NCBI RefSeq assembly: GCF_964204645.1 | Contig: NC_134031.1 | Coordinates: 11,720,088-11,784,087 of the forward strand | Direction: 5' to 3' | Length of the DNA stretch: 64,000 nt | Origin: Tubulanus polymorphus | Lineage: Eukaryota; Animalia; Nemertea | Shown: one piece after another, positions 1 through 31,169 of the stretch | Numbering within the stretch: the first letter of the stretch is position 1 | How the letters are laid out: each line of letters opens with the position of its first letter | The notes under the pieces: generated by a model | The model's input: only the letters and a program-made list of their open reading frames with translations | Database searches by the model: none | Told to the model about the DNA's origin: nothing | Program-made: the position numbers and the translations under genes

Positions 1-690
1 TAGTATAAGAAATGAAGCTGATAAAATTGCGCATGATAAAAGTATAAAAGATTTAAAAATTAGAACTTTAGAAAAAGAATTAACTGATAAAAATAAAGAA
101 ATAGAACAATCAAAATTAGATAGAGATAATAAAGTTATTGAAGAAATTGAATTTAAAAAAAGAAATGCATATTTAGAAAAAGAAATTGATGATTTAGAAT
201 ATAACATAGAATTACAAAAAGAAGAAATTAAATTATTATTAAAATCATATGATTATAATATTAATAGATTAAAAGTTATTTTTAAAGATTTGTTGATAAA
301 ACCAGATTCTAAAATATCATTGAAAGATGGAATGAAATTATTATTTAAGTTAGAAGGAATAACAATTCTTTCAATTCTAAGAGCTGTAATTATGTTATTT
401 ACAACAATTGGTTTAGCAATATCAAATGCTTTAAAATCTACTCCTACTCCAAATAAACCAGATAAACCCCCAGGTAATAATTCTATACAAGATAAAGTTA
501 AAGATGGTTTAAAGAAATTAGCAAAATATTTATGGGAACTATCTAAAAAAATCTGCTGCAGCATTGCCAGGAGTTATTGCATCAATTGTTGGTTTTATAT
601 TGAAATCTGCAGGAAACATTATTACTTTGCTGCTGAACATATTATTTTATTTTTAATTACAGTTGTAAGTGCTATTATTTTGGGTTAGTG
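1..690 (+). pseudogene. Coiled-coil protein with hydrophobic/amphipathic C-terminus (putative membrane-active virion protein), 3' part
   Basis: K/E-rich coiled coil, then LFKLEGITILSIL...FAAEHIILFLITVVSAIILG; near-identical to 11960-12400 (minus); frameshifted. Confidence 0.65.
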
Positions 691-731
691 AATATGATTA
701 AAAATAGATAATTAATTTTTTTGTTAAATAA

Positions 732-1986
732 ATGAGTGGGAGTTATATAAGTCCTTCTAAGATTTCTAGAATATCTAATGCTATTAAAGCAGAAAGATCA
801 CATCATATAATTACTCATAATCCTTCAAATATTAATCCCGATGAAACTTTATATGTTAGAATTCCTCGATTAACACAAAATACTTTTTATGTTCCAAATA
901 GTATTTATTTATCAGCCAATATAAAAGTTACGATAATGATGGTCATGATAATAATTATGTTGTTGATGATCTTAGGAGATATTTGATTAAAAAATTAACT
1001 ATAAAGATTGGTCCAGAAACAGTTTTCTCATTAGATGATTATAATTCATTTATGCATTATAAAGATTTATGGTTTACTAAAGAAAATAGAAATAATATGA
1101 TATTTCAGGGTATTCAATCGGAAAACCATAATAAATTAAGATCAGGAGCTAATGACGCAATAGTAACTCGTGCCACAGATAATTTGATTAAAAAGATTTA
1201 TGGGAGCAAATATAAAATTCCATTAGACTTTGAATTGATAAATAATAATGCACCTTTATATAAATACGCAATTCAAGAAGATATTATATTTGAGATAACA
1301 TTTGCTCTTGTAAATGAAATTGTATTATCTAGCGTTGTTAAAGATATGGGTTATAAATTATCGAATATATGTTTAGAATATGACACAGTAACTAATGAAA
1401 ATATTGCTAGCACAATTCAAAGTCAATACAATCAAGGATTTTCATTATTATATGATTATATTGATAAATTTAAAACTGTAACTATTAATGCAAATGGTGA
1501 AATAATTAATGAGAATATTAACTCCCCTAGAAGATCTATTAAAGGTATATTAATATTTTTTACAATTGCAACATATTCTAATGGCGCAATAAATGTTGAT
1601 AATTATCATAATCCTGAAATATCAAAAGTAGAAATAACTATTGAATGTATAGCAAATAAATTATTTTGTCAAGGAATGAGAATGATAGATCAGTGGCCAG
1701 AAATTAGAAAACATTTTATGAATAAAAAAAAAAATTATCTGAAAATTTTAATATTAATCAAATTGATTATTATACCGGTAATAAATACGCATAATGGTTA
1801 GATTTTAGAACAACTAAAGATAATTTATTACATGGTTCTGGTAAAAAACTACAGAACACTAAAGATGGAATACAATTATTCATGACAAAGAAAAAAGGAA
1901 GCTTAAATTTCAAAATGCACATTTATATTATATCTGACGCGCAATTAAATATTGTAAATTCTCAATTGAATAGTGTTATGCATTAG
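732..1986 (+). pseudogene. Major capsid protein (double jelly-roll, adintovirus-like), frameshifted
   Basis: ORFs 732-986 and 983-1801 plus tail to TAG near 1986; motifs ITHNPSNI..ETLYVRIPRL, IKKLTIKI, YKDLW..FQGI, NICLEYD, RRSIKGIL, NPEI.KVEITIE, ISDAQLNI recognised as animal Maverick/adintovirus MCP. Confidence 0.8.
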
Positions 1987-2018
1987 AATTTTAATTTTAA
2001 TAAAAATTTATATATTAA

Positions 2019-2830
2019 ATGGATGAAGGTAAAGTATATAAACATATTCCATACATTGATAAACATGAAAATAATGATGGCTTATATTATGTAAAACCTT
2101 GTAATATAGCTTTGATATTTGATCCTATTTTCAAAAATTATAAAACTAAACTAATAGAAATCGATAATAATAAAAGTGGAGTTGTTGATAATTTAAGTTA
2201 TGAAATTGATAATAATGTTTTAACTTCTACATCAAATAATGTTTTACCTTCTACGCCTAATAATGAAATAATATTAAATTATAGTGAAAATAGAAATTAT
2301 TGTGGTTACTGTAAAGGCGAGTTTTCAAACGCTCCAACAAATTGGAATAACCATATGAACACAGTTTACATATCAAAAATGTTATAAAACGTGTTGGTAT
2401 AAGAGCATTTATAGAACACCCATTTAGATATGTTACATACAAAGTTTGTTTCAAATAAAAAGTAAATGGTAAAGATTTATATAAAGATTTTTTATCTAAG
2501 GAACCTAGTTAAGGTAAATTAGATTAATCTGATGCTAAAGAAATATTAGGATGAAACATTGTAAATTAAATGTTGGAGTCAAACACTAAGAAAGAGGATA
2601 AGGAAAATATAGTTACTGGAAAGCATATTGATAATGAAGATTATATAGATACAGATTGGACGTAACGTAAAGTAGTTAAAAAAAAATTAATGATGCGGTA
2701 GATAGGTTGAAAAAGGATTATAATGAAGAAACTAATGATGATCCGGTAGATAGGTTGAATAAAATGTTAGAGTCTGATGATGAATTGGAGAATGATGATG
2801 AAAATGATGTTAATTATCTCACATAATATA
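2019..2830 (+). pseudogene. Unknown Maverick accessory ORF with CxxC motif and acidic tail, decayed
   Basis: ORF 2019-2387 (NYCGYCKGEF) starts in a TAAATG context; broken acidic coding-like sequence follows. Confidence 0.4.
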
Positions 2831-3167
2831 TTGGTTGAAAATTGTATAAAATAATAGTTAATAAAAAAGGGGTTTTAAGTATTTATGCATCTAATACGTA
2901 TTTAATGCGTATCTAATACGCGCCTAATACGTATCTAATATGTATTATTTGAAAATACCTTAAATTATAATTTTTTTAAAAATTTATATTGAAACCTCAG
3001 TAATAATAAATAACCTTTATTATTTTCAAACTTATTCATATATTAGTTGAAAAAATAAAAATAAATTGGTTGAAAATTGTATAAATAATATTTATTTTAA
3101 AAAGGGGGGTATTAAGGTATCTAATACATATCTAATACGTATCTAATACATAAATACTTAAAATACC
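2830..3167. repeat. Duplicated blocks with ~11-bp TATCTAATACG-type repeats downstream of the copy A ATPase
   Basis: Repeats at about 2885-2945 and 3115-3150; block TTGGTTGAAAATTGTATAAA...AAAGGGGG occurs twice; 2990-3045 duplicates the ATPase 3' end (3198-3253). Confidence 0.75.
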
Positions 3168-3729
3168 TTATTTTGTAAATTTATATTCATAGGGAAATTG
3201 AAGCCTCAGTAATAATTTTGAACCTTTATTACTTTTTAATTTTTTCATATATTCATCATGTAATTCAGTAGGTATAATTTGATTTACTTCCAATGATTGT
3301 TGCATAGATTTTCTATCTTTATTGTAGAATAAAACTAAAAATCTTATATTCTCCCTAAAATCTTTAACAATTGAATTATACTTTTGATTTAAAACCCATG
3401 TTGTTATCCCAAAATGTCTCCCGGAGGAAGCTAAATAGCATAACTCACTTTCTCTAACTTTTGAATCATGTAAATTTGCACAATCATCCACAATAAATAA
3501 TGTATTTGATCCTTCATAAATATCAATTGCTATTTTTATACAATTATCTAAATTTTCTTTCACTGTTTTAGGGTCTAATATAATAAGTAGGGCAGAATAA
3601 TATTATATTATCAAAATGATTTTTATAAATAGTTTCTAACAAATCTAATACAAAATGTGTTTCACCACAGTTGGTTACCTCAGTAACTAACATATTATGC
3701 GGTTCAAATATAAATAAATCTTTATTAAT
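3168..3729 (-). pseudogene. FtsK/A32-like packaging ATPase (copy A)
   Basis: Walker B LFIVDDC and SGRHFGITTWVLNQKY; Walker A mutated (EVTNCGET versus GVTNCGKT in copy B); start codon mutated. Confidence 0.88.
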
Positions 3730-4406
3730 TTATTCTTTTAATTTTACGAGATAAAATCCATTCATTGAACTTGTCATCGTACCCTTTATATTTCACCAGA
3801 CAATACTTTTTTCCTTTAAGAGTTTTTGTTTTCAATACTTTTTCTATTTTGTATTCTATTTCATCTGGATTTGGTACAAGTGATAATTCTTGTTCGTAGA
3901 AATAACCTAATATTTCTTCATCTTTTAAATCTTCTTATTTATAAACAAATGGTTTAGTAAGTATTATCTTTTTAATCTTAAATATTTCTGCAGTGAAATT
4001 TGGAGTATAACCTTTATAAAATGTTTTTCGACATTTAGATATTCTTACATGTTATCCTTTTTTAAATTCAGGTTCTCCAAAATCATGTGTAACAAACGCA
4101 CCATATAAATTATTCCAAACTATTTCTGAATTATCTTCTTTTCTAGCTTGTATAGGTTTCATATTTATAGAACTATGTTTAGAATTATTATAACCTTTCA
4201 CTAAATCATCTAACACATCGATATATTTACATGTTTCATTAGCAGTAAAATATTTCCACATTCTAGTTTTCAATGTTTTATTAAACCTTTCTATAATAGA
4301 TGCTTTTTTATCTGAGTGTGTTGAAAAATACTCTACATCGTTATCAGATAACAGTTTTTTGATGGGTTTCGTCGTCAGACGAACCCATCTATGGCATCGT
4401 CGTCAT

Positions 4407-4441
<35 letters not shown>

Positions 4442-6054
4442 GATGTTTCTTTATGACACGATTTAAGCTGTTTGTGTGGACCGACAATTCTGTAATTTCA
4501 CACAGGTATTCTCTACTTGATGTAGATGGTGCAGCTTGGTTTATATTTGATTCCGATGGTTATAAGTGCTCTAATTTGGTTAAAAGATAATTAACGTTAC
4601 TCGCTAGTTCAAGCCGCTGTATAGCGCGTTGCTACGACGACGCTCGATCAACATACTGGTACTCGCTGTGTAATACTGAACACGTATATACCTGTAGATA
4701 TTGATCGTACTAGCACCGGTTTCAGATAGCGCGCGCGCTGATCGGTCTTAACACTTCTCGGAACTGCTGTGCTAAATGCTGAGAGGCCGAATCTATGCGC
4801 AATCATTTATTGGGCTCGTCACATTTGATAGTGAATGGATAAATAACCGGTGTCAATGACGGTCGCTACTCCCCATCAGTATAACTCATCAGTATAAGAA
4901 ATAATTCTTTCGAGTTTTTTTTTCAATCCCCGAAGTTGTTGTTACTATGTTGACCTCGCCGTTTTATTTAAGCTTACTGATGATTCTTCTAGTATTTTTC
5001 AGGGTCACAAGACATGACGAAGTCGCAAAGTTTTGTACAAATTTCACGAAACAAACAATTATTTAGGCGGCACCTGATCTATTGATTAATTATGATAAAT
5101 AATGTTTATTTCATTAAAAATTTGTTTTATTCAAACACTACTTTCGTCGCACATAGCGTGATCGGTAGGCCCTACTATTCTACGGTAGGCCATGGACTCT
5201 TTCATGTGGTAGGCCTATTACAAATGATACAATCCGCGTGTCCGTGAATAAGTGACACGTGGTGGGGCGGGTTGTGAGGAGCATCGAAACTAATCCGTCA
5301 CAAATAATAGATAGAAAACAATACCTTAAGAGGTTAACTTTTATTAACATCATTACCAAATCAAAACCTGCACATCCTATCATAAATAGAAATTCTAAGA
5401 ATTTATTTCAAAGAATAATAAATTACGTCTTAATATTGGGATTCGAACTCGTAGCATCGATTCAGGTGCCTTTCCCAAAGCGGGTATCCCGCGGGGAAAA
5501 CCCATTACTATTTATATCGAGAATCGCCTTTTTGACAGCGAGTTCGGTGAATGAAACAGAAACAATTACACAGAAACCCATCATGGGAAGTTTCTTTCTG
5601 GTTAAAATGTTTATTATAAAATTCCCTACCATCATCAAATTGTATCTTACCTGGAATAGCTTCTTTAAATATATTTTTAAAAGCATTTGTTACTTCAATC
5701 TATACCAGTTTTATTTTTCATTGGAATTGACCATGCGTATCTACTGAATATATCTATGACATTTAATATCCAGAAATATCCTTTGTTGTATTCTTCTAAG
5801 TTCTTCATGTCAATTAAATCTGCTTGCCATTGTTGATCGATATATGACACCATTACTTTTCTTGCTAAATAATTCTTATCCATTTTCTTATGAATTTGAT
5901 ATGTTGGTTGATTTTGTAACCATAATTTTAATTCACTATATTTTATATTTTTTTTATCAGATTTAATTTGATCCCATAATTCTGAAACACTAGAATATGA
6001 TACTTCACTCTCTGGGTTGTAATATAAATCTCTTAAATATTGTCCTTTTTTCAT
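3730..6054 (-). pseudogene. Retroviral-like (rve) integrase with C-terminal chromodomain (copy A), split by an insertion at 4361-5603
   Basis: LYYNP, QWQADL, IDIFSRYAW, QFDDGREF, IIERFNKTLKTRMW, YN..KHSSI.MKP, YKIEKVLK; removing 4361-5603 rejoins KHF|KKLL. Confidence 0.9.
4361..5603 (+). mobile_element. Non-autonomous Helentron/HINE (DINE-1-like) element inserted in the Maverick integrase
   Basis: subTIR GATGGGTTTC 4361-4370 and GAAACCCATC 5573-5582; 5' hairpin 4361-4389; (GTCT)n microsatellite 4407-4440; weak 3' stem; inserted after a T-run with no TSD. Confidence 0.8.
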
Positions 6055-6060
6055 CTTATT

Positions 6061-6350
6061 TTAATCCATTAATAATAATTTAGATTTAGTTTCAATGATT
6101 TTATCATTTGATTTATTTTCTGGTATAATAGGTTTATCATCTTCATCATTATTATCATCAGATTTATACTTAGATTTATATATTACACCAGAGAATATAA
6201 TTACTGTGATTAACCCAATTGTAATATATAAGTAATTATTTCTTCCAGTATTAGAAGAATTAGATGGATTATCATTCGAATCAATATCAGATAATTTCTG
6301 TGATTCATTTATATCAGTTAATTTCATTTTCTTAGCTCTTTTTAATTCTG
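6061..6350 (-). pseudogene. Small single-TM Maverick protein (copy A), 5'-truncated
   Basis: TM segment YLYITIGLITVIIFSGVIY; same layout as the ORF starting at 8296. Confidence 0.55.
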
Positions 6351-6618
6351 AAATATATAAATCGGGTCGGTAGATTCGAATTACCTATTGCGTATAGAGG
6401 AAAAAAGACGTCGATTACTTGTGAGATAGTACAGGAAATGTTCCCAATATCCTAAGTCTGAAAGACTCGATAAGACTAAATTTGATCAGAAGAGTAGATA
6501 CTGTATCAAAGGCTGAGCCAATCGTTAATAATAATAAACAACATGTAGATACAGGTAGTAAACGGAGTAGTGTTAAAGATTGTATACTAATAAGTATGGA
6601 ATATTCAATAAATGTCTC

Positions 6619-7119: not shown

Positions 7120-7450
7120 AGTAATTAGGAAATGGCGTTTTCATACCAGAGGTCGAGAGGTCGAGACACCACTCATCACAGCTAGGCTCTAGCGAGAACG
7201 GACGATTGCTCTGTGATACACATATACAGTGAGTGCGCGTAACAACAACTGCGCGTGGATAGATAGATACAGTGAGTCGCCACTGAGAACGGTTATTAAC
7301 GCGTGTGCTATAGTGCAGTGATTGCGTGTCAACTGTGCCCGGATAAATAGATGCTGTGAGGCTTGGGTGAGAACGGTTAATAGCGTGCTTGTTATATACA
7401 AGGGGAAGTAATCCCCACTCATCACTACAAGTAATTTTTTTTCCTTATAA
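7120..7450 (+). repeat. Left terminal (TIR-like) region of copy B
   Basis: AGTAAT start; CCACTCATCAC at 7169-7179 and 7415-7425; three GAGAACGG motifs; ends in ACAAGTAATTTTTT..CCT.ATAAATGGG, shared with 23046-23135 (minus). Confidence 0.65.
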
Positions 7451-7777
7451 ATGGGAGATAGAAAAGCATTCTTAGCAACAATAAATAACAGAATAAAACC
7501 AGCAAAAAAACAATTTGAAATAAAAAAGTTAGTTGATGTTACAAAAGAAATTGAACATAAAATATTGAAATTAGAAAAGATAAAAACTAAATATGGAGAG
7601 AAAGTATCAGCTAATTTAAGCTATTGCGATGTTAGTACATCGCGAGAATTTAAAGTATTTTTACCTGATAAATGGGTTTCATTGAGTACAGAGGAATTAA
7701 AAGATTTAGAAGGATTTAAAATAATCTATTATGGAAAAAATGAAGATGGCCATCATGATTTAGAAATTGTTGATTAA
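7451..7777 (+). CDS. Small conserved Maverick protein, possibly an OB-fold ssDNA-binding protein
   Basis: Intact 108-aa ORF; homologous to 26516-26869 (KKL, KYG.K, FLPD/YLPD, Y.GKNE.GHHD); fold assignment is inference. Confidence 0.6.
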   Translation: MGDRKAFLATINNRIKPAKKQFEIKKLVDVTKEIEHKILKLEKIKTKYGEKVSANLSYCDVSTSREFKVFLPDKWVSLSTEELKDLEGFKIIYYGKNEDGHHDLEIVD

Positions 7778-7939
7778 ATTTAAAAAAAATAAATTAATAA
7801 AAATAATGAATATCTAGAATCCGAAATGACTTATCTGGACAATTTAATTGCTCCGCATAGATAGACAAAAGAAGTGAGATGGTGCCGTACGGCACCCAGA
7901 TGGTGATATTCAATTAATTAAAAAAAATTATTTTTTTGC

Positions 7940-8296
7940 TTTTTTTCTAAAATATTAATCCATTTTTTTTATTATCAATTTTGGAATTTCAGAAGTATTT
8001 TCATTTTTAATAGCAGTTGTTTTAGAATTATTAATATCATGAATTTTATTTGATTTCTTATACCAATTACACCCAATCAAAATGAGTACAATTACAAATC
8101 CAACTGTAAAATATAGTCATTTATCAAATATTCTATTATTAGAAGGAGTAGAAATAACAATATTTTCACCATTTTTATTACTTATTTTTTCTTTTACAGC
8201 TTTTTTATATTCTTGTGATTTAATTCCTAATTGCCGAGACCATTCAATTTGTTTCTGTGATCTCGGTTTTTTCTTCACTTCTTCCACCTTGTTCAT
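7940..8296 (-). pseudogene. Small basic single-TM protein (copy B)
   Basis: MNKVEEVKKKPRSQKQIEWSRQLG...*LYFTVGFVIVLILIG; TAAATG start; internal stop. Confidence 0.55.
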
Positions 8297-8312
8297 TTAT
8301 TATAGAAATATT

Positions 8313-8853
8313 TTAACTTTCAATATTTGAAAATGTTATAACTCCAGTTGATAATAATGTCATAAATCCACCTAATTGAAATGATAAATATCCAATCCAT
8401 TTATTTAATTCGGTCATAACTAAATAATCATTTTTTAAATCAGCATATAATCTATTTTCATCTTGAATTGGCAGCATATAATTACATATTTTACTATAAC
8501 CTTTTACTACATTTTCTGATATCGCATCATTAATTCTAGCTGTTCTCGCGGTTTCATAAATCTTAAATAATCTAATAATTTCATCTGATTTTATTGTATC
8601 CAATTCATTATAAGTTAAATTTTTACCGATAAAATTTTTACATTTTCCAGATGCTATATAATTTCTAATTGATGTTTACAATAAAGAAAATATTCATAAT
8701 TATTATTTGTTGTAACATTATTTAAAGCACCATCATCTGGAATTAATTTGTTTTCTGTTATTCCTAAATCATCTAAATTTATTCCTAATAATCTAAAGTT
8801 TTTTCAATTGGAACATCACCATTTTTAGATTTTATTTTCATTTCACCTACCAT
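8313..8853 (-). pseudogene. Conserved Maverick accessory protein of unknown function
   Basis: TAAATG start at 8853; C-terminal ORF 8313-8603 (LFKIYE...LPI.DEN.L..DL); frameshifts in the 5' half. Confidence 0.55.
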
Positions 8854-8884
8854 TTATATAACAAAAAAATTAGTTGTGATGTTG

Positions 8885-9145
8885 CAACTAGAATTTAACT
8901 AGAATGTAACTAGAATTCAACTAGATTAACAAGCTAGTTGAAATATTGTTTTTTTTATATATTTTTTGTTAAATCTGGTTGATTTTTGTTCCAACTACCA
9001 ATAACTAGAATTCAACTAGAATGTAACTAAAAATATACTAGATTAACAAGCTAGTTAAAATATTGTTGAATTTTATTTGATTTTTGTTTCAAATACCAAT
9101 AACTAGAATTCAACTAGAATGTAACTAAATATGTAATAGATTAAC
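8885..9145. repeat. ~10-bp AACTAGAATN tandem repeats in three blocks downstream of the copy B ATPase
   Basis: AACTAGAATTT/AACTAGAATGT/AACTAGAATTC/AACTAGATTAACAAG blocks at about 8886, 9003 and 9101. Confidence 0.85.
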
Positions 9146-9159
9146 AAACCTGTTGAATT

Positions 9160-9767
9160 TAAATAAATTCATTTTTAAATGGGTGTTGTAATCTAAATAG
9201 TAATTTTGTTCTTTTAATATTTTTCAATTTATCCATATATTCATTATGTAAATCATGTGGAATAATATCGTTTTCCTCAAGTGCATTTTTCATCGATTTT
9301 CTATCTTTATTGTAGAATAAAACTAGAAATCTAATGTTTTCTCTAAAGTCTTTAACAATGGAATTATATTTTTGATTTTAAACCCATGTTGTTATCCCGA
9401 AATGTCTCCCAGAGAAAGCCAGATAACATAACTCACTTTCTCTCACTTTTGAATCATGTAAATTTGCGCAATCATCTATAATGAATAATGTATTTGATCC
9501 TTTATAAATATCTATTGCTATTTTAATACAATTATCTAAATTTTCTTTTACTGTTTTAGGATCTAATATAATAAATTTATTATTTCTAGTAATATTTCTA
9601 TCATAAGTTTGAATAAATTCATATGTTGCACAAAATAATACTATATTATCAAAATAGTTTTTATAAACAGTTTCTAATAAATTTAATATAAAATAAGTTT
9701 TTCCACAATTTGTTACGCCAGAAATTAACATATTATGAGGCTCAAATATAAATGATTCCTTATTCAT
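9160..9767 (-). pseudogene. FtsK/A32-like packaging ATPase (copy B)
   Basis: Walker A ISGVTNCGKT, Walker B LFIIDDC, FSGRHFGITTWV; premature stop at 9378, homology to copy A continues to about 9190. Confidence 0.9.
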
Positions 9768-10892
9768 TTATATATTTTTAATTTTACTTGATAATATCCA
9801 GTCATTGAATTTATCTGGCTACCAACCCATTTTACTAAAGAATATTTTTTTCTTTTAATAGTTTTTGTTTTTAATACTTTTTCAATTTTATATTCTTGTT
9901 CTAGATTTTCAGTAGTTAAACTCAATTCTTCTTCGTAAAAGTAGCCATCAACTTCTTCACCATCTAAATCTTCTAATTTATAGACATATGGTTTTGTTGT
10001 TATAACCTTTTTTATTTTATATATTTCTCTAGTAAAATTTCGATCGTATCCTTTATCAAATATCTTTTTATACTTAGAAATTCTAACATTTTGACCAACT
10101 TTAAATTTAGGTTCGCCAAAATCATCTACAAGAAATGCTCCATATAAATTATTCCAAACAATTTCAGAATTTTCAGGTTTTCTAGCATCAATAGGTTTCA
10201 TTCCAATAGAAGAATGATAAGAATTATTATATCCTTCTATCAATTTTGGCAAAACATCAATCCATTTAAAAGTTATTTGCTGTAAGATATTTCCACATTC
10301 TTGTTCTTAATGTTCTATTAAATCGTTCAACAACTGCCGCTTGTTTATCCGATTTTGTTGAAAAATATTTAATATTATGATTGTCTAAGAGTTCATGAAC
10401 AAGTGAATTATCAAACTCTTTTCCATCATCAAATTGTATTTTTTCTGGTTTTAGTTTATCATCCGAAAGAAATTTTCTTAAAACATTTGATGTTTGTACA
10501 GCATCTTTTCTATAAATTGGGAAACTCCATACATAACGACTAAAAATATCAATTATATTCAATATCCATCAATAATCATCATTATATTTCTTAACATTTT
10601 TCATATCAATTAAATCTCTTTGCCACTGTTGATCTACATAACTTACCATAGTTTTACGAGTTTTATATTTTCTAACAATTTTTTTATGTGTTGTATATGT
10701 TGGTTGTTCTAACGTAAATTCATTTATATCTATATATTTAACTAAATTTTGTGGGATTATCTTATCTAATTTATCTTCTTTTACTTGACGCCATATATTT
10801 TTGGTAGAAGAATAAGCAACCGAACTCTCAGGGTTGTAATATAAATTTCTTAAATATTGTTCTTTAGTATTAGGAGTTTTTTTACCACCCAT
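9764..10892 (-). pseudogene. rve integrase with chromodomain (copy B), three fragments
   Basis: ORFs 10569-10892, 10266-10562 and 9764-10252; D-D-E in QWQRDL, IQFDDGKEF, VVERFNRT; chromo-like YKIEKVLK...LVKWVG. Confidence 0.92.
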
Positions 10893-10922
10893 TTATATAT
10901 CCTTAATTTTAACTTTATATTT

Positions 10923-13073: not shown

Positions 13074-13089
13074 TTATATAATAAAAAAA

Positions 13090-17562: not shown

Positions 17563-18013
17563 TGGCCATAAGGTAATGTTTTTATACCATCATCTAAAAT
17601 ATGCCTTTTATCATCAAATGGATTCAAACTAGTTTTTTCAACTTCATTAATGTACATCTCGTGATTTTCTGATCTTAAACAATTCATTTTATGTTTCATT
17701 ACAATTGAGTTATATAAACACTTTATATAATCTTGAAATTCTATATGTTTATCAACCACATGTTTTGTTATTCCTTTTAACTTTTTATTTCATGATCTTT
17801 TATTCTGTACCTATACATTTTACTTCTTATCCCAACAAATTCAATCATTTCATCACCCCCTAATTCATCTTTAAATTTACCAGAAATCTTTTTATTATCA
17901 TTGTTAAATAGTTCATGATCTTTGGGATAATTGCTAAAATCAAAATGATGTTTTAATGTTTTTAAGTCTTTTGTTATGTCATTTGTCTTGATTTTTAGTA
18001 TGTACGCATCCGT

Positions 18014-19510: not shown

Positions 19511-22500
19511 ATCAAAATATAATATTTCAATATGCTTTTCCCCAAAAAGTGGTCGTAAAACATTATAATAAAAATCATACATTAATAATTTTGATACTTC
19601 TAAAACAGTTGAACCAATGAATATAGGTTTATTAAATTTCATTGACGTTCTTTTTAATTTAACTGCTTTTAAATAATCTTCAAATCTTTTATTTCCTAAA
19701 TGTCTAGGACTTGATTGTGAATGTCTTAATCTTTCAGAATTATTTACTAATTCAATATCATTTCTATTTCTAATATTTTCGCATGTTTTACCATAAAAAC
19801 TATTATTCATTAATTTGAAGAAATCTTTTTCAAAATCTGTTTTTGATATGGTTCTCTGTTGAGTATTGAAATCTATATATTTTTCTAACCACTTCGATTG
19901 ATTAAATTCAATATATCTATGTACTTTCTTTAATTTCATTCCTTGTTTTAGATAAAATGTTAACATTCTATAATGAACAATATAATTGTATTTATTATTT
20001 TGAGTAAGTATTAACTTCTCTGTAAAAACATGATCTTTCGGTTTTATTTTCTTTTGGTATTCACTTAAATAACTATCATCTACAGTTAAATGTTCTGGGC
20101 AATAAGCTAAGTTTCTTGTTTTAAACTTTATATTTTCAGGATATTCTAAATCAACTACAAAGAAATAACCAATTGGTGCTTCATCTTTTAAACTCGCAAT
20201 TGCGCTTTCCCAATCAGTTTTATCATCATTTTCAACTTCTGTTAATATAAAATCTTTATATGGTTGAGGTTGCATCATTGCCCAACCATATACATTATTG
20301 GCGTCAATATATAATAATTTATATTCATCATTTGCTTTAAAATATCTATCTCCCATAACACCACTAATTCCACCTCTAATTGATTTTTCAAATAATAAAA
20401 CCATGTCTGGTTCTTTTAATAAATCTAATTCTACATTTGTATATTTTAAACCACATTGCCAGGTTAAACCAGGACTAGAGTAGCAATAACAAGGATCAAC
20501 ATTAAAATGATTCAAATTAACTTCTCTAAATTTTTCAAATATGTCAGCCAATATCATAACATCTGATTTTAAATATAAATCAACTAATTCACCATGATTT
20601 TTCATCTTAAAATGGTTCCAAATATTTAATGTTCTATTAAACACTTCGTCTTTCACATACTCCTCTTTTAATTGATCATAAAATTGATCTTTTAATAATT
20701 CTGTTACATTAAAATCATTGTGTGTTTTATAAAATGAATAAGGAATTGCGCCTTTATATCTCAATAATTTAAAATCTTGTTCATTTGGATAATAATATCG
20801 AGTCATAACAAAATCATTATCAACTAAACTTTTTGATAAATTATCTAATGAACTTGCTAGAAATCTATAAGAATCTAAAAATCTAATGCAACCAAATTGA
20901 AATGAAATATAATTTTCAGATGTTTTAGCTAATAGTTTAAAATCATATTTTCTTACATTTACACCATTCATAGCATTATATTCTTCTATTTCTTGATTAA
21001 TTGCGCCCAATTTTCCCGATAATTGTTTTATTAATAGATGGGTATCATAGCCTGATAAATTATGAAATAATATTGGTACGAAATTAACTTTCTTAGCTTG
21101 TAAATTGCAATCTTCATGAGCAGCTCCACGATATTTTGAATTTAAATGATCATGATCTCTAACTTTTTTATCAAATGAATAAAAACGTTTTTCACAATAA
21201 CAACAATGAGTTGCATAATTAAAATCAATTTCATCTTCTTTTGTCATAACTATTCTTTTATTTTTGTTTAATAATTTTGCAAAATCACTTTCTAATTCAA
21301 TCATTTTGTCACAAAAATCATTAACTACATTTTCACCTCTAAAAGAAATATATCGACTTTCATATAATTCAGGATAATTTGATTTTATATAAATTCCATA
21401 AGCAGCAGCTCTTTGATGAACTTTTTTAATTGTATTTATAATTGGCGGGTCTTGTATTGTGTCTTCATTTAATTCATTTCCTTTATCCATTGATTTTAAT
21501 AATTGCTTTTTGTTATATATTTCTTTTCTATCTTGATCAGTTAATTCTTTATTCAACGATTCAAAATCCCCATACAAATGGAACAATATTCTTAAATTTA
21601 TGATTAGTAAATTTCAATTCATAATCTTTTTCTGTTGGCATTATTAATTTACAAAAATCTTTATTATCACATAATTCTTTATGTTTTAATAATGTTTTCT
21701 TAGTCATAAATTTAGATAAACATTTTCTACATAGATAAATTTTATGATGATGATCACTTTCTGTTCTAAAGAATAAATCAATTTGTTTTAACCACATATA
21801 ATGTTCATTTTCATCTTTTTTGTAATATAACAAATCTATAGCATTTTCATCATCGTAATATTCTGTTAAATATAAAGTTTCCAATGTATAATCTTTAATA
21901 TTTTCACCTTTTGTCTTTGGTAATTGCATTAATTCAAATACATTTATTTTTAAATTATTAACTTTTTCTATTTTAGAAATCATTTTTATAGTTACTGGAT
22001 ATTGATCAATTTTATATAATGTTTCATATTTCCGATAATCTGTTATTCTACAAACATTTTCCTGTGTTGGATGTAAGCAACTAATAATTGACCCTAGAAA
22101 ACATTTATTATCTTCATTTTGAATACTTATTACTGCTTTTGTTGTAAATGGTAATTTAATATAAGATGATGCTTTAATATCCTTTTCTGTTGTAAAGTTT
22201 GAATCATTTTTAAACATTTTATTACTTTTTGATGTTTTATTTCTTTTTGTATTATAAACATTTAAATCTAAATATATCATTTCATTCAATGTTAAGCCAG
22301 AACCCTCAAAATATCTTTCTTCAATATGACGTTTAAATTCATTAAATATTTTTTCTAACTTCTCTTTTATTTGTGTTTTTGAAATTATTTCTTCAGAGTG
22401 TGTTTGAATATTATAATCCATTTTTTTTCTTCTGACTTTATAAAACTTACTTTCCCAGAGATACTAATTTTTGGATATTCAACATCTGTTATCAAATCTA

Positions 22501-23135
22501 GTATTTTTTCTATTATTTCATTAAATGTACTATAATCTTCTATTGTTGTACCTTTAAAAAATCTAAATATAATAGCTGCAGGACCAATTTTACTATGTAA
22601 TGTTTCTAAAATTTCAATTGTATCTTTTATTTCTAGTGAATCAATATAATTTCTAACATTTTCCATGTAAGGTTTATTTGAAATGGATTTAGTTTTTGAA
22701 GTTGGTTTTTTTACTTTTTGAGGTTTATCATCAAAATAATCTTTTCCTAAAACATTATTACTCAAATTTTGATGGTGTTTTTGTGATTCGAGATGTCTAT
22801 TATAATTCCTTTTTACTATAAATTCATTACAAACTTCACATTTTATTTCATCCACATTCATATTTTCTAATCTTCCTTTTCTTTCATTGGAATTTTCTGG
22901 AGTTTCAAAATCTATTACATTTTTTATATGATTTGTAGTTTTTTCATGTCGTGTTTTATTAGATGTATCGACGTATTTTTTACAATATGTGCAATAATAT
23001 TGATTTTTATTAACATTATTGTTTTCTGGCTGGTGTTCATTCTTCCCCATTTATTAGGAAAAAAAATTACTTGTGGTGATGAGTGGTGTCTCGTCCTCGG
23101 GTCCTCTGATCTGAAGGCCCACTTTTCCAATTACT

Positions 23136-24138
23136 GATATAACTAATAAATTAGGACCTATACAATAATTTAATCTTACATGAGATTTATCTAAATAATT
23201 TTGGTACCTAACTATATATTCTCGATCTATTTTTATCATTGTGAATTGAATCTTCAAATAAAACTTTAAATTGTTTCTGTGTATCAAATGATGTATTTAA
23301 ATTTCCAATTATTGGGGATCTTGTTCCAACTTGCAATCCTAGAATACAAATCAAATAAGTTCTAATTGATTGATTTATTCTTTGTATACCTGATTTAGTA
23401 AAACCTTCACTATTATCTAAAATAAAATAAACCAAACCATTATTGTTTTCTTGTTTTAAATGATCATAACATTTCGGTAATTTATTGAAATCTAATGTTT
23501 CTAAATCCTTAGTTTCTATTTTACCATAACCTAATTTATTATTATAGATATTATAAAAACTATTAGATGGTATGGGAAGCAATCTTTTTAGGGCAAGGAA
23601 GTGATCTTATTGTTCCAAGTTTTGTTCTAAAATCAGAATTATTTATATCTATATTAAATTCATTACAAATCTTATAAAACTTTGATAAATTAATATTATT
23701 ATCTAATTCTTTGAAATATCTAGATCCTGGTAAAGGACACTCTAATTCATTTGATTCATCACTCTAATTATTATGGAATCTAAAAAAACTTTGAATTAAT
23801 TGATATTTAGAATTATTCAAATAATCATTCCAACTTATTCCACAACCTGTTGTTGCACAATAAACTGCAAAATTTAATTGGTTCTGCCAATACTTCATAT
23901 CGGATTTTAATGACTATTGTTTTTCATCTTTCAATTTTTTACAATTAATTAAATATACATGAAATATATTTTCCATCTTTGCATAAAAATCATTAGTTTC
24001 AGTAACATAAATATCTAAATTAATTGATGAATCTAAAACTTCATTTCTATATGAAATATCTTTATTAAAATCTATTGCAGGAATATTATATTTAATTGAT
24101 TTATTATATTGGAAAGCTTTTGGAAAACTATCTGTCAT
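23136..24138 (-). pseudogene. Paralogue of 13090-14376, cut at 23135/23136 by the copy B terminus
   Basis: FPKAFQYNKS, GIQRINQSIRTYLICILG, YLDKSHVRLNYCIGPNLLVIS then an abrupt switch to AGTAATT. Confidence 0.8.
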
Positions 24139-24154
24139 TTTTATAATAAAAAAA

Positions 24155-25727
24155 TTAATAATTAATTAATTCTTTTAATAATCTATCTAGTTCTTCAATT
24201 TTTATATTACCATTTAAACTTATAATATAATCTAGTGTATTTTTTAATTCATTAATTTCTTTTATATTAGATTTTATTTTTTCTTTATTACTTTTTATAT
24301 TCAATTTTGAACTTATTCCGGTTAAAACACTTGAACTTAATCCTAACACACCAATTGATATAGCTAAAGGTGTTTATGGTGAGAATATTGCTAAAAATGT
24401 TATTACAGAACTAATTGTAACTGAACCACTAATAATAAAACAATATATAATTTTCCTTTTTAAATATTTTTTCTTTTAAACTTTTAAATCATTTTCAAAT
24501 TTTAATATTTGTTTTTCCAAATATAATTTTAATTTAGTTTTATTTATATCATGAGGAATAATATTAACACCATCAACTTTATCATCCATTTATTTAGCAA
24601 AAAAATTACTAATTTGTAAATTTATAAGCAACAAATATAACAATAACTGTTCCACCTAAAATCCAAATTATTTCATATTTCTTCTGTTCTTTACTTGGGG
24701 TATAATAATCTGATAATTTAGGTTTGTATAGATGTAATTTTCACGATTTTTTACTGCATTATATAAACTCATAGCTTCATCGACTGATTGAAAATCTGTA
24801 TGTGTAATTTTCTGATTATATAATTCTTTATTAATGTAATCCATGGCCCAGGTCCACAGTTCTGAGTTACGATTTGACTCTGGGTTAAAACATTGAAAAT
24901 GAACTAACTTAAACTCAGAGTTAACTCTAACTCACGACTGTGGAACTGGGTCCATATAGTTTTACCTCTTTTCTCTATATTCTTCTGCAGCTTTATTATA
25001 TTTCTCTAATGCTAAATTATGTCTTCTTTGTTCTCCTTATGAATTATTTTTATCAATATGCTTAAACAAATATCCGCCACCAGTAAATGCTAAAGCGTTA
25101 ACAATTGCCGACCCTATAATAGTTATAATTGCAGAAGCCATTTATTTAGTAAAAAAATTATGCATTTATAAAGGAGGATTATATTTTTGTTTTTCTAAAT
25201 AATCAATCGTTAAATTAGATAAAGTAACTGCTAATGTTAATTTTAAAATATCATTGATATCAAATCTATCAACATTAACACTTCCCACTTTAAATAATTG
25301 TTTTAATACCATTTAATAACCAACAGTTCCAGCTGACAGTTGCTCCATTATATAAACCAGTTATTATCCACTTATTATCACTCATTTATTAATCAAAAAA
25401 ATCACCTTCTTCAAAATATTTAGTTATCTTATTTATGATTATTTCAACATTTATTTCATTACTACTTTTATGATTGTCATATATTTTAGATAATATATTT
25501 TTAATATCATCGATAATTCCATCTTCATTTAATTCATAATATTCTAAAGGTGTTTTGATTAAATCAATTACTTTTTCTATATTATAATTTCCTTTATTAA
25601 TCATGGATGCATTGTTAAATGATTTACCATTAATATCAGTAATTACATCATTTAGTTTAATTCTCATTTCTTTACCATGTTTAAAATCAAACCCAAAACA
25701 TATACTCGGTCCAACAGTTATATTCAT
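24155..25727 (-). pseudogene. Four small accessory genes of copy C (starts at 24589, 25141, 25385, 25727)
   Basis: Each homologous to genes in 14393-15443; three have TAAATG starts. Confidence 0.7.
24845..24952. mobile_element. 108-bp MITE (PIF/Harbinger-like) in a copy C gene
   Basis: TIR GGCCCAGGTCCACAGT / ACTGTGGAACTGGGTC; CAT duplicated on both sides; empty site ATCCATATAG in copy B (~14651). Confidence 0.85.
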
Positions 25728-25742
25728 TTGTATATCAAAAAA

Positions 25743-26501
25743 TTACTCTTTACATCTTATAACTAATTCATAAATTACAGGAAAGTTATTCAAATCAATT
25801 AGATATCCATTATAATTTCTAATTTCTAATCTAAAATTATTAAATTGAGGGATGCATGGTTTGAAATCACACTCAGCTAAACTATAATTTATTTGCGTTC
25901 CAAATTCTTTAACATTCTTCAATTGTAAAATATTCAATTAACCAGAATTACAAATTGTATCTTTAGTTGCTTCAAATGTTTTTGTAGGATCAATTAAATT
26001 GCAATAAATATAAAAGTGTGTAAAAGGCATTAAGTTTGGTGTAGCATCAGCATTACGTATCCTTACATCCGGGGTTATTCCTAAAATTTTAGCTAAAGGT
26101 TTTTTAACTAGAAATTGATGCTGATCTTCATTGCCTACTTTTATTCTTACTTTATCAAAGCTATCACTTTTAATAAGTCTTAATCCAAATCCAGCAGATG
26201 CACCCATTTTTGAGCGTGCTCTTTTATCAATTTCTTGAGCTAATGTTTCTAAATTATATAATCCTGGTTTAAGATAAAGATGAAACCATCTATTCTTATT
26301 TCTGTCATGAATTAAAAAGACTCTATGTTCAATAGATTTATCCGATATATTGTAAAATGAGTTACATAAACTAATATTTACTCATTTTAAATCTACGCAA
26401 TTTTTAAATTCTCTATCTAATTGTACCAGTAAATTATGTGATTTATAATTTTTTAGTCTTCTTGAATCAACAAATATTCTATAATCTTTTAATTCTACCA
26501 T
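25743..26501 (-). pseudogene. Minor capsid protein (penton), copy C
   Basis: Paralogue of 15460-16165 with in-frame stops. Confidence 0.75.
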
Positions 26502-26515
26502 TTATTTTACATATT

Positions 26516-26869
26516 TTATTCGAAATCTATATCATGGTGCCCTTTTTCATTCTTACCTTTATATATGAAATAGAAATCTCCAGAACATAATTCTTCTAAA
26601 TCTTCACTAGATAATCTATGAAATCTATCTGGTAAATATGTTCTGAATTTATATTTATTTCCTTTTAATCCTTCTTATTCAAAGTGGATAACTAATTTAT
26701 CTCCATATTTGTTAATAACTGTATCAATATTTGTAATTAGATATTTCTTATGAATTGTTAATTCTGTTAACTTCTTAAATTTATAATCTGCTGATATAGC
26801 ATTTGTGATATCTTTTATTCTAGCTAGGAATGATTTGTTGTTCTCACTGTGTATTTGTTTACTCTCCAT
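26516..26869 (-). pseudogene. Paralogue of the 7451-7777 protein (possible OB-fold)
   Basis: ..FKKLTEL..KYGDKL..*..YLPDRF..YKGKNEKGHHDIDFE; one internal stop at 26675. Confidence 0.65.
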
Positions 26870-26899
26870 TTTAATAACAATTTTTTAATTAAAATTTGA

Positions 26900-29800
26900 T
26901 TAACATGCTAGAATTCTTTTAATAATCTCATTCTCTTTTGTTTCTTCTCTTTTAAACTTTAAGTATTCATCTAAATTACAACCATAAGCAACTGTGTGTA
27001 TACCATCATCTAAAATATATCTTTTATCGTCAAATGGGTTTAGACTTATCTTCTCTATCTCTTCAAAAAACATTTCATGATCTTCTGATCTTAAATATTT
27101 CATCTTATGTTTTCTAACTTCTTCATTGAATATACAATTGATGTAATCTTTGAAATGAATATTCTTTTCAACAGCGCTTTTGGTAATTCCTTTTAACTTT
27201 TTAGATTCATGAGTTTTGGTTTCATATGAATCTATTTTAGATCGAATTCCAATGAACTCTCATTCTCAGTCATTTCTTCACCACCTAATTCATCTTAGAA
27301 TTTACCGGGTCGCTTTTTATTTTCAGTATTATATAATTCATGAGCTTTTGGATAATTACTGAAATCAAAATGGTGTTTTAATGTTTTTAAATCATCTGTT
27401 ATGTTATTAGTTTTTATCTTAAATATGTAACTGTCAGTATCAAAATATAAGATTTCTATATGCTTTTCTCCAAAATGAGGTTGTAATACATTATAATAGA
27501 ATTCATACATTAATAATTTTGATATTTCTAAAACTGATGCTCCAACATAAATTGGTTTATTGAATTTCATAGAAGTTCTTCTCATTTTAACTGCAGCTAA
27601 ATTTTTATCAAATATTCTGTTACCTATGAACTTAGGATATGTTTGTAAATGCCTTATCCTTTTACCATTACTAACTAACTCAATATCATTTCTATTTCTA
27701 ATATTTTCACAAGTCTTACCATAGAATGCATTATTCATTAACTTGAAGAAATCTTTCTCAAAATCAGTTTTAGCTTTAGTTCTCTGTTGAAATCTATATA
27801 TTTTTCTAACCATTTAGATTGACTGAATGAAATATATCTATGTACTTTTTTTAGAACCATTCCTTGATTCAAATAAAACTTCAACATTCTATAATGTACT
27901 ACATAATTATATTTATCTTCCTGAGTTACCATTAACTTTTCAGTATGAATATGATTTTCGGGTTTAATTCTTTTTTGGTAATTTGATAATTCTTCATGTG
28001 TTACAGTTTTATGTTCGGGGCAGTATGCTGCATTCCTTGATTTAAATTTAATGTTTTCAGGATATTCCAAATCTACAACAAAGAAGTAACCAGTATCTGA
28101 ATCATCTGCAATATCTAGAATTCTTTTCTTCCAATCAAATTTATCATTATTTTCATGTTGTAAAACTTCAGTTATTTCAAATACTCCATAAGGTTGTGGT
28201 TCCATCATTGCCAAACCATATAGATTATTTGCGTCTATATATAATAATTTATATCCAGGGTGGGTTATCATTTACATTGAAATATATATCGCCTAATACA
28301 CCCGAAACTCCTCCTCTTATAGATTTTTCCAATAATAATAATTGATTTATATTTGTTAACAAATCCATTTTTATATCTGTAAATTTCAAACCACAGTCCC
28401 AAGTTAAACCTGGACTAGAATAACAATGACATGGATCAATATTGAAATATTTTAGATTTACATCTCTAAACCATTCAAATATATCAGTTAATAATAATAC
28501 ATCTGATTTTAGATATAAATCTACTAATTGTCCATGATTTTTCATTCCAAAATGATTCCAAATATTCAATGTTCTATGGTAGACTTCATCTTTAACATAT
28601 TCATTTTTTAATTCATCATAGAATTGTTCTTTTAATAATTCAGTTATATTGAAATCATTATGTGATTTATAAAATGAATATGGAATTGCTCCTTTATATC
28701 TCATTAATTGAAAATCATCATTATTTGGATAGTGTTGCTTTAATATGTTTAATTCATCATCAACTAATGATTTTGATAAATTATCTAATGAACTACTTAA
28801 AAATCTATATGAATCTATAAATCTTAGACACCCAAATTGGAAAGATATATAGTTCTCAGATGTTTTAGCTTACATTTTAAATTTATATGTTGGTATTTAA
28901 TCTTTGATCTATTTGGATTTAATCTTTCTATTTCATTATTGATTTCTTCTATTTTATGGCATAGCTGTTTGATAAATAAATGAGCATCATACCCTGATAA
29001 ATTATGAAATATAACTGGAACAAAATTGATTTTCTTAGCTTGTAAGTTACAAATCTCATTCGCCGCACCTCTAAACTTTCCATTCAAATGATCATGGTCT
29101 CTAACTTTTTTATCTTTTAGATTAAATGTCTTTTCACAATAAAAACATTTATCAGCAAACTCAAATTCTTCTTTATCTTCGTCTGTCATAATTATTTCTA
29201 TATTTGTATCTAATAGTTTACTAAATTTTATTTCATATTCAATTAATAAGTCACAAAAATGATTTATAACATTTTCATTTCTATAATTATAATATTCACT
29301 TGAAATTAGTTCTGGATAATCAGATTTTATATATAATCCAAAAGCTGTAGCTGATTGATGAATCTTTTTAATAGTATTTGTTTCTGGTGGTTCTTCTGAA
29401 AAATCATTTTCATAGTTTAGTTTCTTTCTTTTATAATATATTTCTTTTCTATCGTGATCAGTTAATTCTTTATTGAGTGACTCGAAGTCACCATATATTA
29501 CAAATGGTACTTTGTTTTTGTAATCATATTTTTAAAATTCTAATATTTTATCCTTTTCATTTGGTAAAAATAATTAACAATAATCATGATTTTCACATAA
29601 TTGTTTATGATTTGATAATGCAGTTTCAGTTCTAAATTTATGTAAACATTTTCTACATAGATATATTTTATTATCAAAATCATTTTCTGATTTAAAAAAT
29701 AAATCGATTTGTTTAATCCACATATAATGATTTTCATAATATAGTATATCTATAACATCATTTGAATCATAATTTTGATAGGTATAAAGTTTCTAATGTA

Positions 29801-30947
29801 TAATGTTTTATATTGTTACCTTTCGTATTTGGTAATTTGATTAAATCGAATACATTTATTTTTAGATTATTATCCCTTTCAATTTTTGGAATATTTTTAA
29901 TTCTAACTGGATAATTATCTATCTTATAATTATTTTCAAATTGTTTATAATTTGTTAATCTAAAACTATGTGTTATATCTTCTGTTGGATGTAAGCAACT
30001 TATAACTGTCCATAGAAAACATTTATCATCAGAATTGTGTACATTTATTACAGCATTAGTTGTAAATGGTTATTTGATATAACTTGATCCATTTATAATA
30101 TCATCATTATAATATGATAAATTATTTTCATCAATTGGTTTTGATTTAGTTAACTTATTATATTTTGTGTTATAAACATGTAAAGTCATAAATATTATTT
30201 CATCAAATATTAACCCAGATCCTTCAAAATATTTCTCTTCTATTTTAGTTTTTACTTCATTATAACATTTATCTAATTTTTCATCTATATGTTGTTTCAT
30301 CTATATATTGTTGAAATAATATGTTGTGAATGGGAATTTATATTATATATTGGTTTATCTTCAGATTTTATAAACTTAACTTTAACTGATATGCTAATTT
30401 TAGGGTATTCAATATTTTCACAATATTTTTCATATTTTCTAAATGTTTTTTTATTTTCTTCTAATGTTTTTCCTTTATGAAATTTAAACTCAATAGCAGC
30501 TGGACCAACATCACTTTTAAATGCTTCAGTTATCTCTACTTCTTTTTTATTATCTAATGAATTGATATAATTTCTAATATCTTCCATGTATGGTCTTTTA
30601 CTGTTTAATTCATTTTTTATTCTTTTAATTGTCTTCTGTTTCTTATCATTATCTTTATCAAAATAATCTTCACCTATAATATCATCATTATTAATATTTC
30701 TAATATGACTTATAGATTTTAAATGTTCTTTATAATATCTTTTATCACTGAATGATTGATTACATGTATCACATTTATATATTTCTTTTTCATTCTTCAA
30801 TTCATCTTATTTAGTTTCTAATTTATCATCTTTATATTCTAATTTCAATTTATTTTCTAAATGTGTTCTAGTTTTATTATGTCTTGCTTTTTGAGATTTA
30901 TCTATATTAATTTTACATGTCGGACAGTAGTACTTATTTGCTTCCAT
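26900..30947 (-). pseudogene. polB: Protein-primed family B DNA polymerase (copy C), intein-free allele
   Basis: Many frameshifted fragments; YIDANNLYG, KLMNNAFYGK, uninterrupted ILYFDTDSY (27427-27453). Confidence 0.95.
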
Positions 30948-31017
30948 TTTAATATCAAATTTTTTATTGAAATTGATTTTAGAAGTTATTCATATTCATA
31001 TATATGAATATTATAAG

Positions 31018-31169
31018 AGTAATAGGGAATATGTTGTTTCATATCAAAGGTTGAAGGGGCGAGTGAGTAAAAAATGAAAAATAAATTCGAGCGTGCGAGA
31101 ATTTATTTTTCATTTTTTATGAGCTCGACCCTTCGACCTTTGGTATGAAACAACATATTCCCTATTACT
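31018..31169. repeat. 152-bp near-perfect palindrome whose arms match the Maverick terminal motif
   Basis: ~70-bp arms AGTAATAGGGAATATG...AAATTC around a ~10-nt loop; right arm (reverse complement) matches 7120-7165 at 35/46 ungapped positions. Confidence 0.9.

Follow-up and report, generated by a model that had tools for sequence, protein, structure and literature searches.

A start signal resembling poxvirus late promoters in decayed Maverick/Polinton copies of the nemertean Tubulanus polymorphus

Animal Mavericks may live either as autonomous nuclear viruses or as satellites of large DNA viruses, and a clade-wide promoter of the helper type with fixed spacing can provide a direct test between the two. 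The question is raised here by a stretch of 64,000 nucleotides from the nemertean Tubulanus polymorphus (assembly GCF_964204645.1, contig NC_134031.1, positions 11,720,088 to 11,784,087 of the forward strand), which we call the window. Its part 1-31169 contains three decayed, nested Maverick/Polinton copies, A, B and C, as recognized by self-comparison and by alignment to intact relatives. A first-pass annotation, made from the letters alone, had proposed that they represent a virophage-like family that parasitises a cytoplasmic large DNA virus of an invertebrate, and it had assembled several clues in favor of this view: the gene kit, the low G+C content, intronless genes with pox-like late signals, an intein, and a tract resembling the poxvirus early core. 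Which of these clues can carry the proposal?

The start signal of the Maverick genes

Gene starts in the window were placed by alignment to intact relatives (n=25), and TAAATG is found at 18 of these 25 starts, compared to 96 of all 1266 ATGs in 1-31169. Of the seven other starts, two retain TAAAT with the ATG lost or shifted, TAAAA(A)TG is found at three, and the remaining two have another sequence. An independent test was based on the first ATG of each non-overlapping open reading frame (ORF) of at least 100 aa in loci that were fetched for comparison. In the close loci (n=15), TAAATG occupies 52 of 61 ORF starts. The outer capsid relatives (10 loci) have it at 1 of 20 starts and the distant Polinton loci (n=21) at 12 of 215, which gives 13 of 235 for these other Polintons together, and the large-virus loci (n=80) have it at 92 of 869. 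Some of the 15 close loci are near-duplicates, and a reduced set of 12 loci with 47 TAAATG starts shows the same profile. Intact relatives with 74-80% identity in the capsid possess the motif at 14 of 15 ORFs. It is carried by replication, integration and capsid genes alike, and in copy B it is present at all five remaining starts of a block of six conserved ORFs (11943..15443).

The motif is bipartite. It consists of an A at -15, a T tract that peaks at -9, a relaxed spacer from -8 to -5, and the TAAATG that is fused to the start codon. In the close loci, T is found at -9 in 49 of the 52 TAAATG starts and A at -15 in 79% of them. In the window, T at -9 accompanies 16 of the 18 true starts, but only 23 of the 78 other TAAATG occurrences (p 5e-6). 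The claim of pox-like late signals was thus borne out in intact relatives and with controls, more strongly than it had first been stated.

More ordinary causes of TAAATG were considered and rejected. The left part of the window is indeed AT-rich, as had been noted (23.5-23.8% G+C in the element parts of 1-31169, 35.3% in the right half of the window), but the motif is kept in relatives with 40-44% G+C (3 of 4 starts in L005, 2 of 3 in L006), so that an AT bias does not explain it and low G+C is not needed as support for a helper. A coupling of stop and start codons is not the cause either, since the TAA represents the stop codon of the upstream gene in 1 of 52 TAAATG starts and 13 of the 52 face a divergent neighbor gene. 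A Kozak effect would hardly favor this sequence: T at -3 is a disfavored base that provides a poor context for the ribosome, and it is found at 53 of 61 starts in the close loci versus 49 of 215 in the distant Polintons.

Judged by its sequence, the start signal of the family closely resembles a poxvirus late promoter. In vaccinia late promoters, TAAAT(G) overlaps the start codon and is preceded by a T tract (PMC5294985, PMC11980589, PMC3741161), and this arrangement, which vaccinia late and intermediate promoters share with the Mavericks, is supplemented in the latter by the extra A at -15. A further difference is that the Maverick signal, known from sequence alone, is placed on nearly all genes, including those for polymerase and integrase.

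Poxvirus-associated Polinton-like viruses (PLVs) are known, and what appears to be new here is the clade-wide pox-type promoter in Polintons. A literature search for pox-type promoters or inteins in Polintons, in which supplements and most subscription papers lay outside the search, returned no report of such a promoter. The word "promoter" does not occur in the main texts of PMC11131425, PMC8502044 (adintoviruses), PMC12220804 (cryptophyte PLVs), 10.1101/2024.03.23.586382 (egovirus) and 10.64898/2026.06.19.733378 (PLV framework), and the main text of PMC11296320 contains neither "promoter" nor "TAAAT" nor "intein".

Another occurrence was seen in L036, a viral contig of 9034 nt with a Polinton that is placed far off on the polymerase tree. 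It has TAAATG at 7 of 7 starts, four of them with T at -9, which suggests a repeated adoption of the motif among Polintons. The integrase of L036 has an N-terminal extension without Pfam match that we take to resemble a cysteine protease.

The putative helper and its alternatives

From the start signal we infer a satellite lifestyle, in which the motif would serve as a post-replicative promoter. We think that the family probably depends on a cytoplasmic nucleocytovirus, and roughly two thirds of this confidence falls on a pox-like virus. In the nucleus the element would not be expressed before late transcription factors become available from a helper, and it would then be transcribed by the RNA polymerase of the co-infecting cytoplasmic large DNA virus, most likely one of the poxvirus type. 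No RNA polymerase gene was seen by Pfam in the near-complete copy B or in its intact relative L001. Initiation within the AAA and slippage of the polymerase would result in 5' poly(A) leaders, and if this slippage occurs as at the vaccinia initiator (PMC6211774), the T at -3 could be tolerated because it would not be transcribed. The element's own pPolB (protein-primed DNA polymerase B) would replicate it by protein priming, its own capsid and ATPase would package it in the virus factory, and the integrase would return it to the nucleus, as in the case of endogenous mavirus. The proposal of a parasite of a cytoplasmic large DNA virus is supported by the promoter test in intact relatives, whereas the convergence of clues that was invoked for it is weaker, as early core and intein fail as support.

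Endogenous mavirus, the virophage of Cafeteria roenbergensis virus (CroV) in Cafeteria, is comparable in possessing pPolB and an rve integrase, in its nuclear integration and in its proposed helper-triggered expression. Its genes are all said to carry the late promoter of the helper. However, mavirus has a different capsid lineage and a protist host, and the CroV late motif is TCTA instead of TAAATG. The PLVs of entomopoxvirus occlusion bodies are also Polinton-class elements and have been proposed as poxvirus parasites (Barth et al. 2024, PMC11296320), but according to that paper they are about 12 kb in size, lack an rve integrase and contain a protease. Reactivation and protection have been shown for mavirus and these PLVs were found physically in the occlusion bodies, whereas the window family and its putative poxvirus link are known from sequences.

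Several results weigh against the helper proposal. No helper sequence was found: a promoter-motif scan of viral contigs gave 108 stretches, and none of the 74 with at least four ORFs reached 50% TAAATG, so that neither a helper nor a further family member emerged. One read run that may be of RNA had no alignments on 29600-32600, a result that does not bear on expression. A zinc-finger ORF has a tail that matches Pox_VLTF3 below the cut-off in copy B as well as in L001 (E 0.01-0.02), and searches with the central part of this ORF returned no homologues and no Atlas match; VLTF3 itself has already been reported from some Polintons, including coral polintoviruses (PMC11131425). The T peak at -9 lies one base nearer to the start than the T at -10 of the tabulated vaccinia late consensus (PMC11423596). 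Among 121 large-virus loci, 8 are likewise enriched in TAAATG, which they have at 21-43% of their starts but without the T being fixed. Intein and promoter moreover appear to point to different viruses, because the non-Maverick kin of the intein are Pol-delta-like polymerases on giant-virus contigs. Finally, AAAANTGAAAA, the putative early core, is found five times in the left part of the window with 1.95 expected and a maximum of five in 100 shuffles, two of the five being mirror images of each other, and the two pPolB genes show no depletion of TTTTTNT (5 versus 4.9 and 2 versus 4.2).

The enriched loci lead to the first alternative, in which the same satellite lifestyle is served by a non-pox nucleocytovirus, iridovirus- or asfarvirus-like, with (A)TAAATG late starts. 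We regard this as unlikely, with about a third of the confidence in a helper assigned to it. A poxvirus, too, may have the motif flagged at only part of its genes, as described for the salmon gill poxvirus (PMC4542343), and the literature search did not bring up a poxvirus from marine invertebrates. The Maverick consensus often includes TATATA, which is the asfarvirus-type late motif. The enriched contigs are L087, L191, L222, L083, L085, L098, L079 and L135, and L087, with 50% G+C, has a polymerase with an intein of the same type as that of copy B. Yet this intein is only 33% identical and not among the closest, and the enriched loci vary in the number of A before the ATG and possess T at -9 in 51% and A at -15 in 49% of 45 starts, which is not the fixed pattern of the Mavericks. 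A rather improbable alternative is the autonomous nuclear Maverick, in which TAAATG would be read by the host RNA polymerase II or act as a translation-start context and would have been fixed by descent. Most Mavericks are assumed to be nuclear, the present ones integrated in the nucleus and multiplied in a species with no helper known, and as the clade is monophyletic, its 52 starts are not 52 independent origins. However, a TATA-like box that is fused to the ATG would, with the spacing of RNA polymerase II, start the RNA inside the ORF (PMC5294985). Descent also has to account for a motif with fixed spacing that was kept gene by gene over 45-80% capsid identity and 20-44% G+C, for a T at -3 that is rare in other Polintons, and for the distant L036, with its indication of repeated adoption.

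It is also conceivable, though quite improbable, that the promoters are relics that served a helper in another host or a virus now extinct, and that the family spread here by other means or lost its helper. Every window copy is broken and the intact relatives were retrieved from metagenome contigs that are not assigned to a host, which would agree with such a history, but copies of two or more subfamilies, with DNA identities of 72-93%, multiplied in this genome with the motif kept, and it is equally kept in the intact relatives closest in capsid. We consider it very improbable that the helper is a cytoplasmic linear plasmid encoding its own RNA polymerase, of the kind of the yeast pGKL2. Such plasmids descend from Polintons, and their initiator is TAAAN, at which slippage adds poly(A) (PMC6211774, PMC11161782), but they have been described from yeasts (PMC6211774), and their essential upstream conserved sequence (UCS), ATNTGA, precedes only 1 of the 52 starts.

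If the dependence on a pox-like helper holds, a poxvirus lineage is to be expected in a host group for which the search turned up none, and virophage-type defence in animals becomes a question. As a tentative extension, to which we give somewhat less than even weight, a widespread aquatic clade of Mavericks integrated in animals could consist of obligate satellites of an undiscovered poxvirus-like lineage in non-insect invertebrates, with mavirus-like integrated copies, a pox-type wiring that has arisen more than once among Polintons, and promoters that reveal the helper of any Maverick family. TAAATG together with its spacing is a cheap screen that can be applied to every animal genome.

The early-core tract had been noticed upstream of the copy C pPolB. 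The tract, AAAAAATGAAAAATAAA, is present at 31069-31085 (+) and mirrored at 31102-31118 (-) within a palindrome at 31018-31169 with 71-nt arms. The tract and the start codon of pPolB are about 155 nt apart, and three other ATGs lie in between. The 152-nt hairpin is part of the terminal inverted repeat (TIR) of the copy C subfamily and not a promoter module, because its arms match the TIR of copy B and because reads define an inner border of the terminal repeat near 30993 (590 reads, agreement 0.82). An unrelated miniature inverted-repeat transposable element was rejected, as the arms align with the copy B TIR and reads run through the palindrome into pPolB. The copy B TIR lacks the AAAAAATGAAAAATAAA tract. 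We therefore do not retain AAAANTGAAAA as a poxvirus early core: it is one mirrored motif in the TIR of one subfamily, without enrichment and without TTTTTNT depletion. Hundreds of reads leave the terminal repeat at 31113 and 31150 into fairly uniform sequence, which suggests that other subfamilies share the outer end only or that there is a variant terminus, and that the hairpin is not found in all copies. A foldback element with long inverted arms (32623-34736) has a one-mismatch copy of the tract in its center, at 33687.

The intein of the copy B polymerase

The intein of the copy B pPolB is inserted between the D and T of the catalytic motif and can be aligned with 40-43% identity along an intact intein of 360 aa. 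Although its TIGR01445 match is below the cut-off (E 3e-4), it is a genuine intein (Hint and LAGLIDADG) that is inactivated here. In its insertion between D and T of YxDTDS, a Ser as first residue, the LAGLIDADG endonuclease and a length of about 360 aa it is like the Pol-c inteins of giant-virus family B polymerases, but it resides in a protein-primed polymerase, has its nearest kin in other Mavericks and is inactivated. An invasion of Polinton polymerases by inteins has been suggested in general (PMC11161782).

The intein is not ancestral to the clade, as the site is empty in copy C and in 36 of the 120 listed polymerase homologues, including the two closest. Among these 120, P0226 shows the intein and 83 were left unresolved by the search pattern; the homologue search excluded proteins of more than 1355 aa, so that full-length intein carriers could not appear in it. 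A search with the intein resulted in 409 matches, and none of the 150 that were listed gave a score against pPolB. Of 34 intein-match proteins scanned, 26 are RNA-primed family B polymerases, and the relatives of these intein-bearing polymerases lie largely on contigs of giant-virus metagenome-assembled genomes. The tree calculated for 61 rows places the window intein together with five short fragments that lie on long contigs (support 99). This group is nested among the inteins of those polymerases, and its sister row is strongly Pol-delta-like. The five fragments resemble the start of the P0226 intein via P0256, and P0226 itself belongs to the clade that is sister to that of the window polymerase. 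An intein at the same site is seen directly in P0226 and as partial flank in P0256. A sister Maverick clade on long contigs with the same intein comprises P0226, P0252, P0255, P0256, P0259, P0287 and P0304. The nearest non-Maverick intein host, P0318, is strongly Pol-delta-like (E 1e-176) and has a cysteine-rich tail.

The earlier description of a giant-virus-type intein is thus right with respect to an intein, but its nearest kin are found in a sister Maverick clade and then in Pol-delta-like giant-virus polymerases, not in poxviruses, and as a pointer to a poxvirus it has to be discarded. These relationships make it likely that Mavericks acquired the intein a single time, with a non-pox giant-virus-type polymerase as its source, and that it later spread from one Maverick to another and is now patchy in two clades. 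It is accordingly a separate, older trace of a past contact with large viruses and not of the present helper.

Element copies, gene kit and relatives

The features of the left part are the following (position, strand where assigned, description).

1..6390 (end approximate): copy A, partial Maverick, cut by the window start; gene order as in the intact relatives L003 and L010
2..685, +: copy A, conserved coiled-coil ORF of 485 aa, represented by its frameshifted 3' half
732..1983, +: copy A, gene for the major capsid protein with 2 frame changes and 1 stop; starts at TAAATG
3171..3729, -: copy A, broken gene of the A32-like packaging ATPase; start codon gone, TAAAT retained
3728..6057, -: copy A, rve integrase in two parts, with ~1.2 kb of inserted foreign DNA in between (~4370-5610, 40% G+C)
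7120..23135: copy B, near-complete Maverick; both TIRs, core genes all broken, two internal deletions
7120..7455, +: copy B, left TIR, ~90 nt long apart from one insertion of ~235 nt; has the TAAATG promoter of the first gene at its end
9162..9767, -: copy B, A32-like ATPase that starts at TAAATG and is broken by 1 stop
9764..10892, -: copy B, rve integrase with 2 frame changes and 1 stop; has a chromodomain tail, the chromodomain being seen in an intact relative
10926..11961, -: copy B, major capsid protein, broken; 5' end deleted
11943..15443, -: copy B, block of six conserved ORFs with no assigned function (485, 442, 144, 139, 75 and 126 aa in L001)
15463..16168, -: copy B, frameshifted gene, probably for the minor capsid protein (low-confidence single jelly roll)
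16233..17559, +: copy B, zinc-finger ORF with sub-threshold VLTF3-like tail; frameshift near 17300, TAAATG start
17562..23050, -: copy B, pPolB; 3 frame changes outside the intein
18014..19510, -: copy B, LAGLIDADG-type intein at the YFD|TD site; frameshifted, foreign insertion of ~400 nt (~18250-18660)
23046..23135, -: copy B, right TIR
23136..31169, -: copy C, member of a second subfamily represented by its right part; pPolB DNA 72% identical to that of copy B
26900..30947, -: copy C, pPolB with 6 frame changes and 7 stops and lacking an intein; TAAAATG start context, A tract upstream
30993..31169: copy C, terminal repeat, from an inner border at ~30993 to the element end at 31169 as indicated by read ends
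31018..31169: palindrome of 152 nt, two TIR-like arms; hairpin -64.8 kcal/mol, z -18
31069..31118: AAAAAATGAAAAATAAA tract and its mirror image within the palindrome

Alignment to the intact relatives reveals frameshifts or stops in every core gene of all three copies, as expected from their description as pseudogenised. The window genes are colinear with intact homologues, and the only two long gaps between aligned pieces are the foreign insertion in the copy A integrase and the intein, so that the genes are indeed intronless. Foreign DNA was inserted into the copy A integrase, the left TIR of copy B and its intein. The right end of copy B cuts into a gene of copy C. No 6-bp target-site duplication is found at the copy B flanks, and its left flank does not continue the interrupted gene, which indicates that the insertion site was rearranged. 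In copies A and B, short non-coding segments that are duplicated (2825-3170 and 8880-9150) adjoin the ATPase gene at its 3' end.

The capsid, packaging, integrase and pPolB kit was confirmed by Pfam matches and by the capsid fold of an intact relative, with the minor capsid protein following only weakly. In the window pPolB matches PF03175 (E 1e-17) and is 68-80% identical to intact pPolBs, rve (PF00665) is at the cut-off in copy B and above it in L001, and pieces of the packaging ATPase match Pox_A32 (PF04665). The capsid of the intact relative P0001 (74-75% identical) is predicted to fold as a double jelly roll (predicted local distance difference test, pLDDT, 81), and the best structural matches of the model are the major capsid proteins of iridovirus, PBCV-1 and mavirus. 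The low-confidence model of the minor capsid candidate (pLDDT 45) has jelly-roll matches with Z 5.7-7.7, namely PBCV-1 chain 6ncl_a6 (Z 7.7, root-mean-square deviation (rmsd) 4.2, 126 aligned) and the mavirus penton (Z 5.7, rmsd 4.5, 126 aligned). Intact relatives also possess a deoxynucleoside kinase (PF01712) and an HNH-like ORF (L001:10343-10981; L003:5568-6080), both under TAAATG and both absent from the window copies.

The window elements belong to the Mavericks/Polintons (Polintoviricetes). With animal Mavericks and adintoviruses they share pPolB, an rve integrase with chromodomain, the A32 ATPase and a double-jelly-roll capsid, a size of about 16 kb, multiple copies, and TIRs with AG...CT ends (7120/23135 in copy B; in copy C, reads end at 31169). 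They differ in the clade-wide pox-type promoter, in the Hint/LAGLIDADG intein in pPolB, in that no maturation protease was seen, in a TIR that holds the promoters of both terminal genes (the copy B pPolB TAAATG start sits within the right TIR), and in the 152-nt TIR hairpin of one subfamily. "Virophage-like" does not apply in the taxonomic sense (Lavidaviridae/Maveriviricetes): the 415-aa capsid has Polinton-type sequence relatives, mavirus and Sputnik match it only at the fold level, ranking below iridovirus and PBCV-1, and no protease family is matched by Pfam in copy B or L001. The family may represent group 2 Maverick-Polintons; the missing protease match fits this group as described in 10.64898/2026.06.19.733378.

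A capsid search retrieved 296 proteins, about 50 of them with 45-75% identity and from short metagenome contigs, and relatives with 37-39% identity include the bivalve gene P0054. A metagenome scan for relatives resulted in 25 loci, and a viral-contig scan with a polymerase alignment in 22 further, more distant Polintons. Viral contigs were also scanned twice by capsid and once by polymerase without a relative being detected, and a TIR-motif scan of viral contigs gave 15 stretches, none with capsid or intein matches. The motif-bearing loci and both window capsids form one capsid clade (support 98; FastTree, with the fragmentary L045 left out).

The family is multicopy in the host species. Raw DNA reads with the same species label have a depth of 250-1800 over copy C and of 27-75 on the flank, and at 31169 as many as 440 reads depart into sequences that differ from each other (agreement 0.37), which indicates many insertion sites. 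The ends number in the tens or more, a minimum estimate because the flank is possibly repeated itself. The flank resembles transposon-rich eukaryotic DNA. Further to the right, dispersed repeats occupy 49958-64000, where we take 53762-57185 to be a broken transposase-like region and 58329-58973 a reverse-transcriptase-like fragment, both without Pfam match. The region 39190-42814 contains an open frame of 990 aa, presumably transposase-like by its motifs, with a weak OTU match and followed by a 145-nt tandem repeat.

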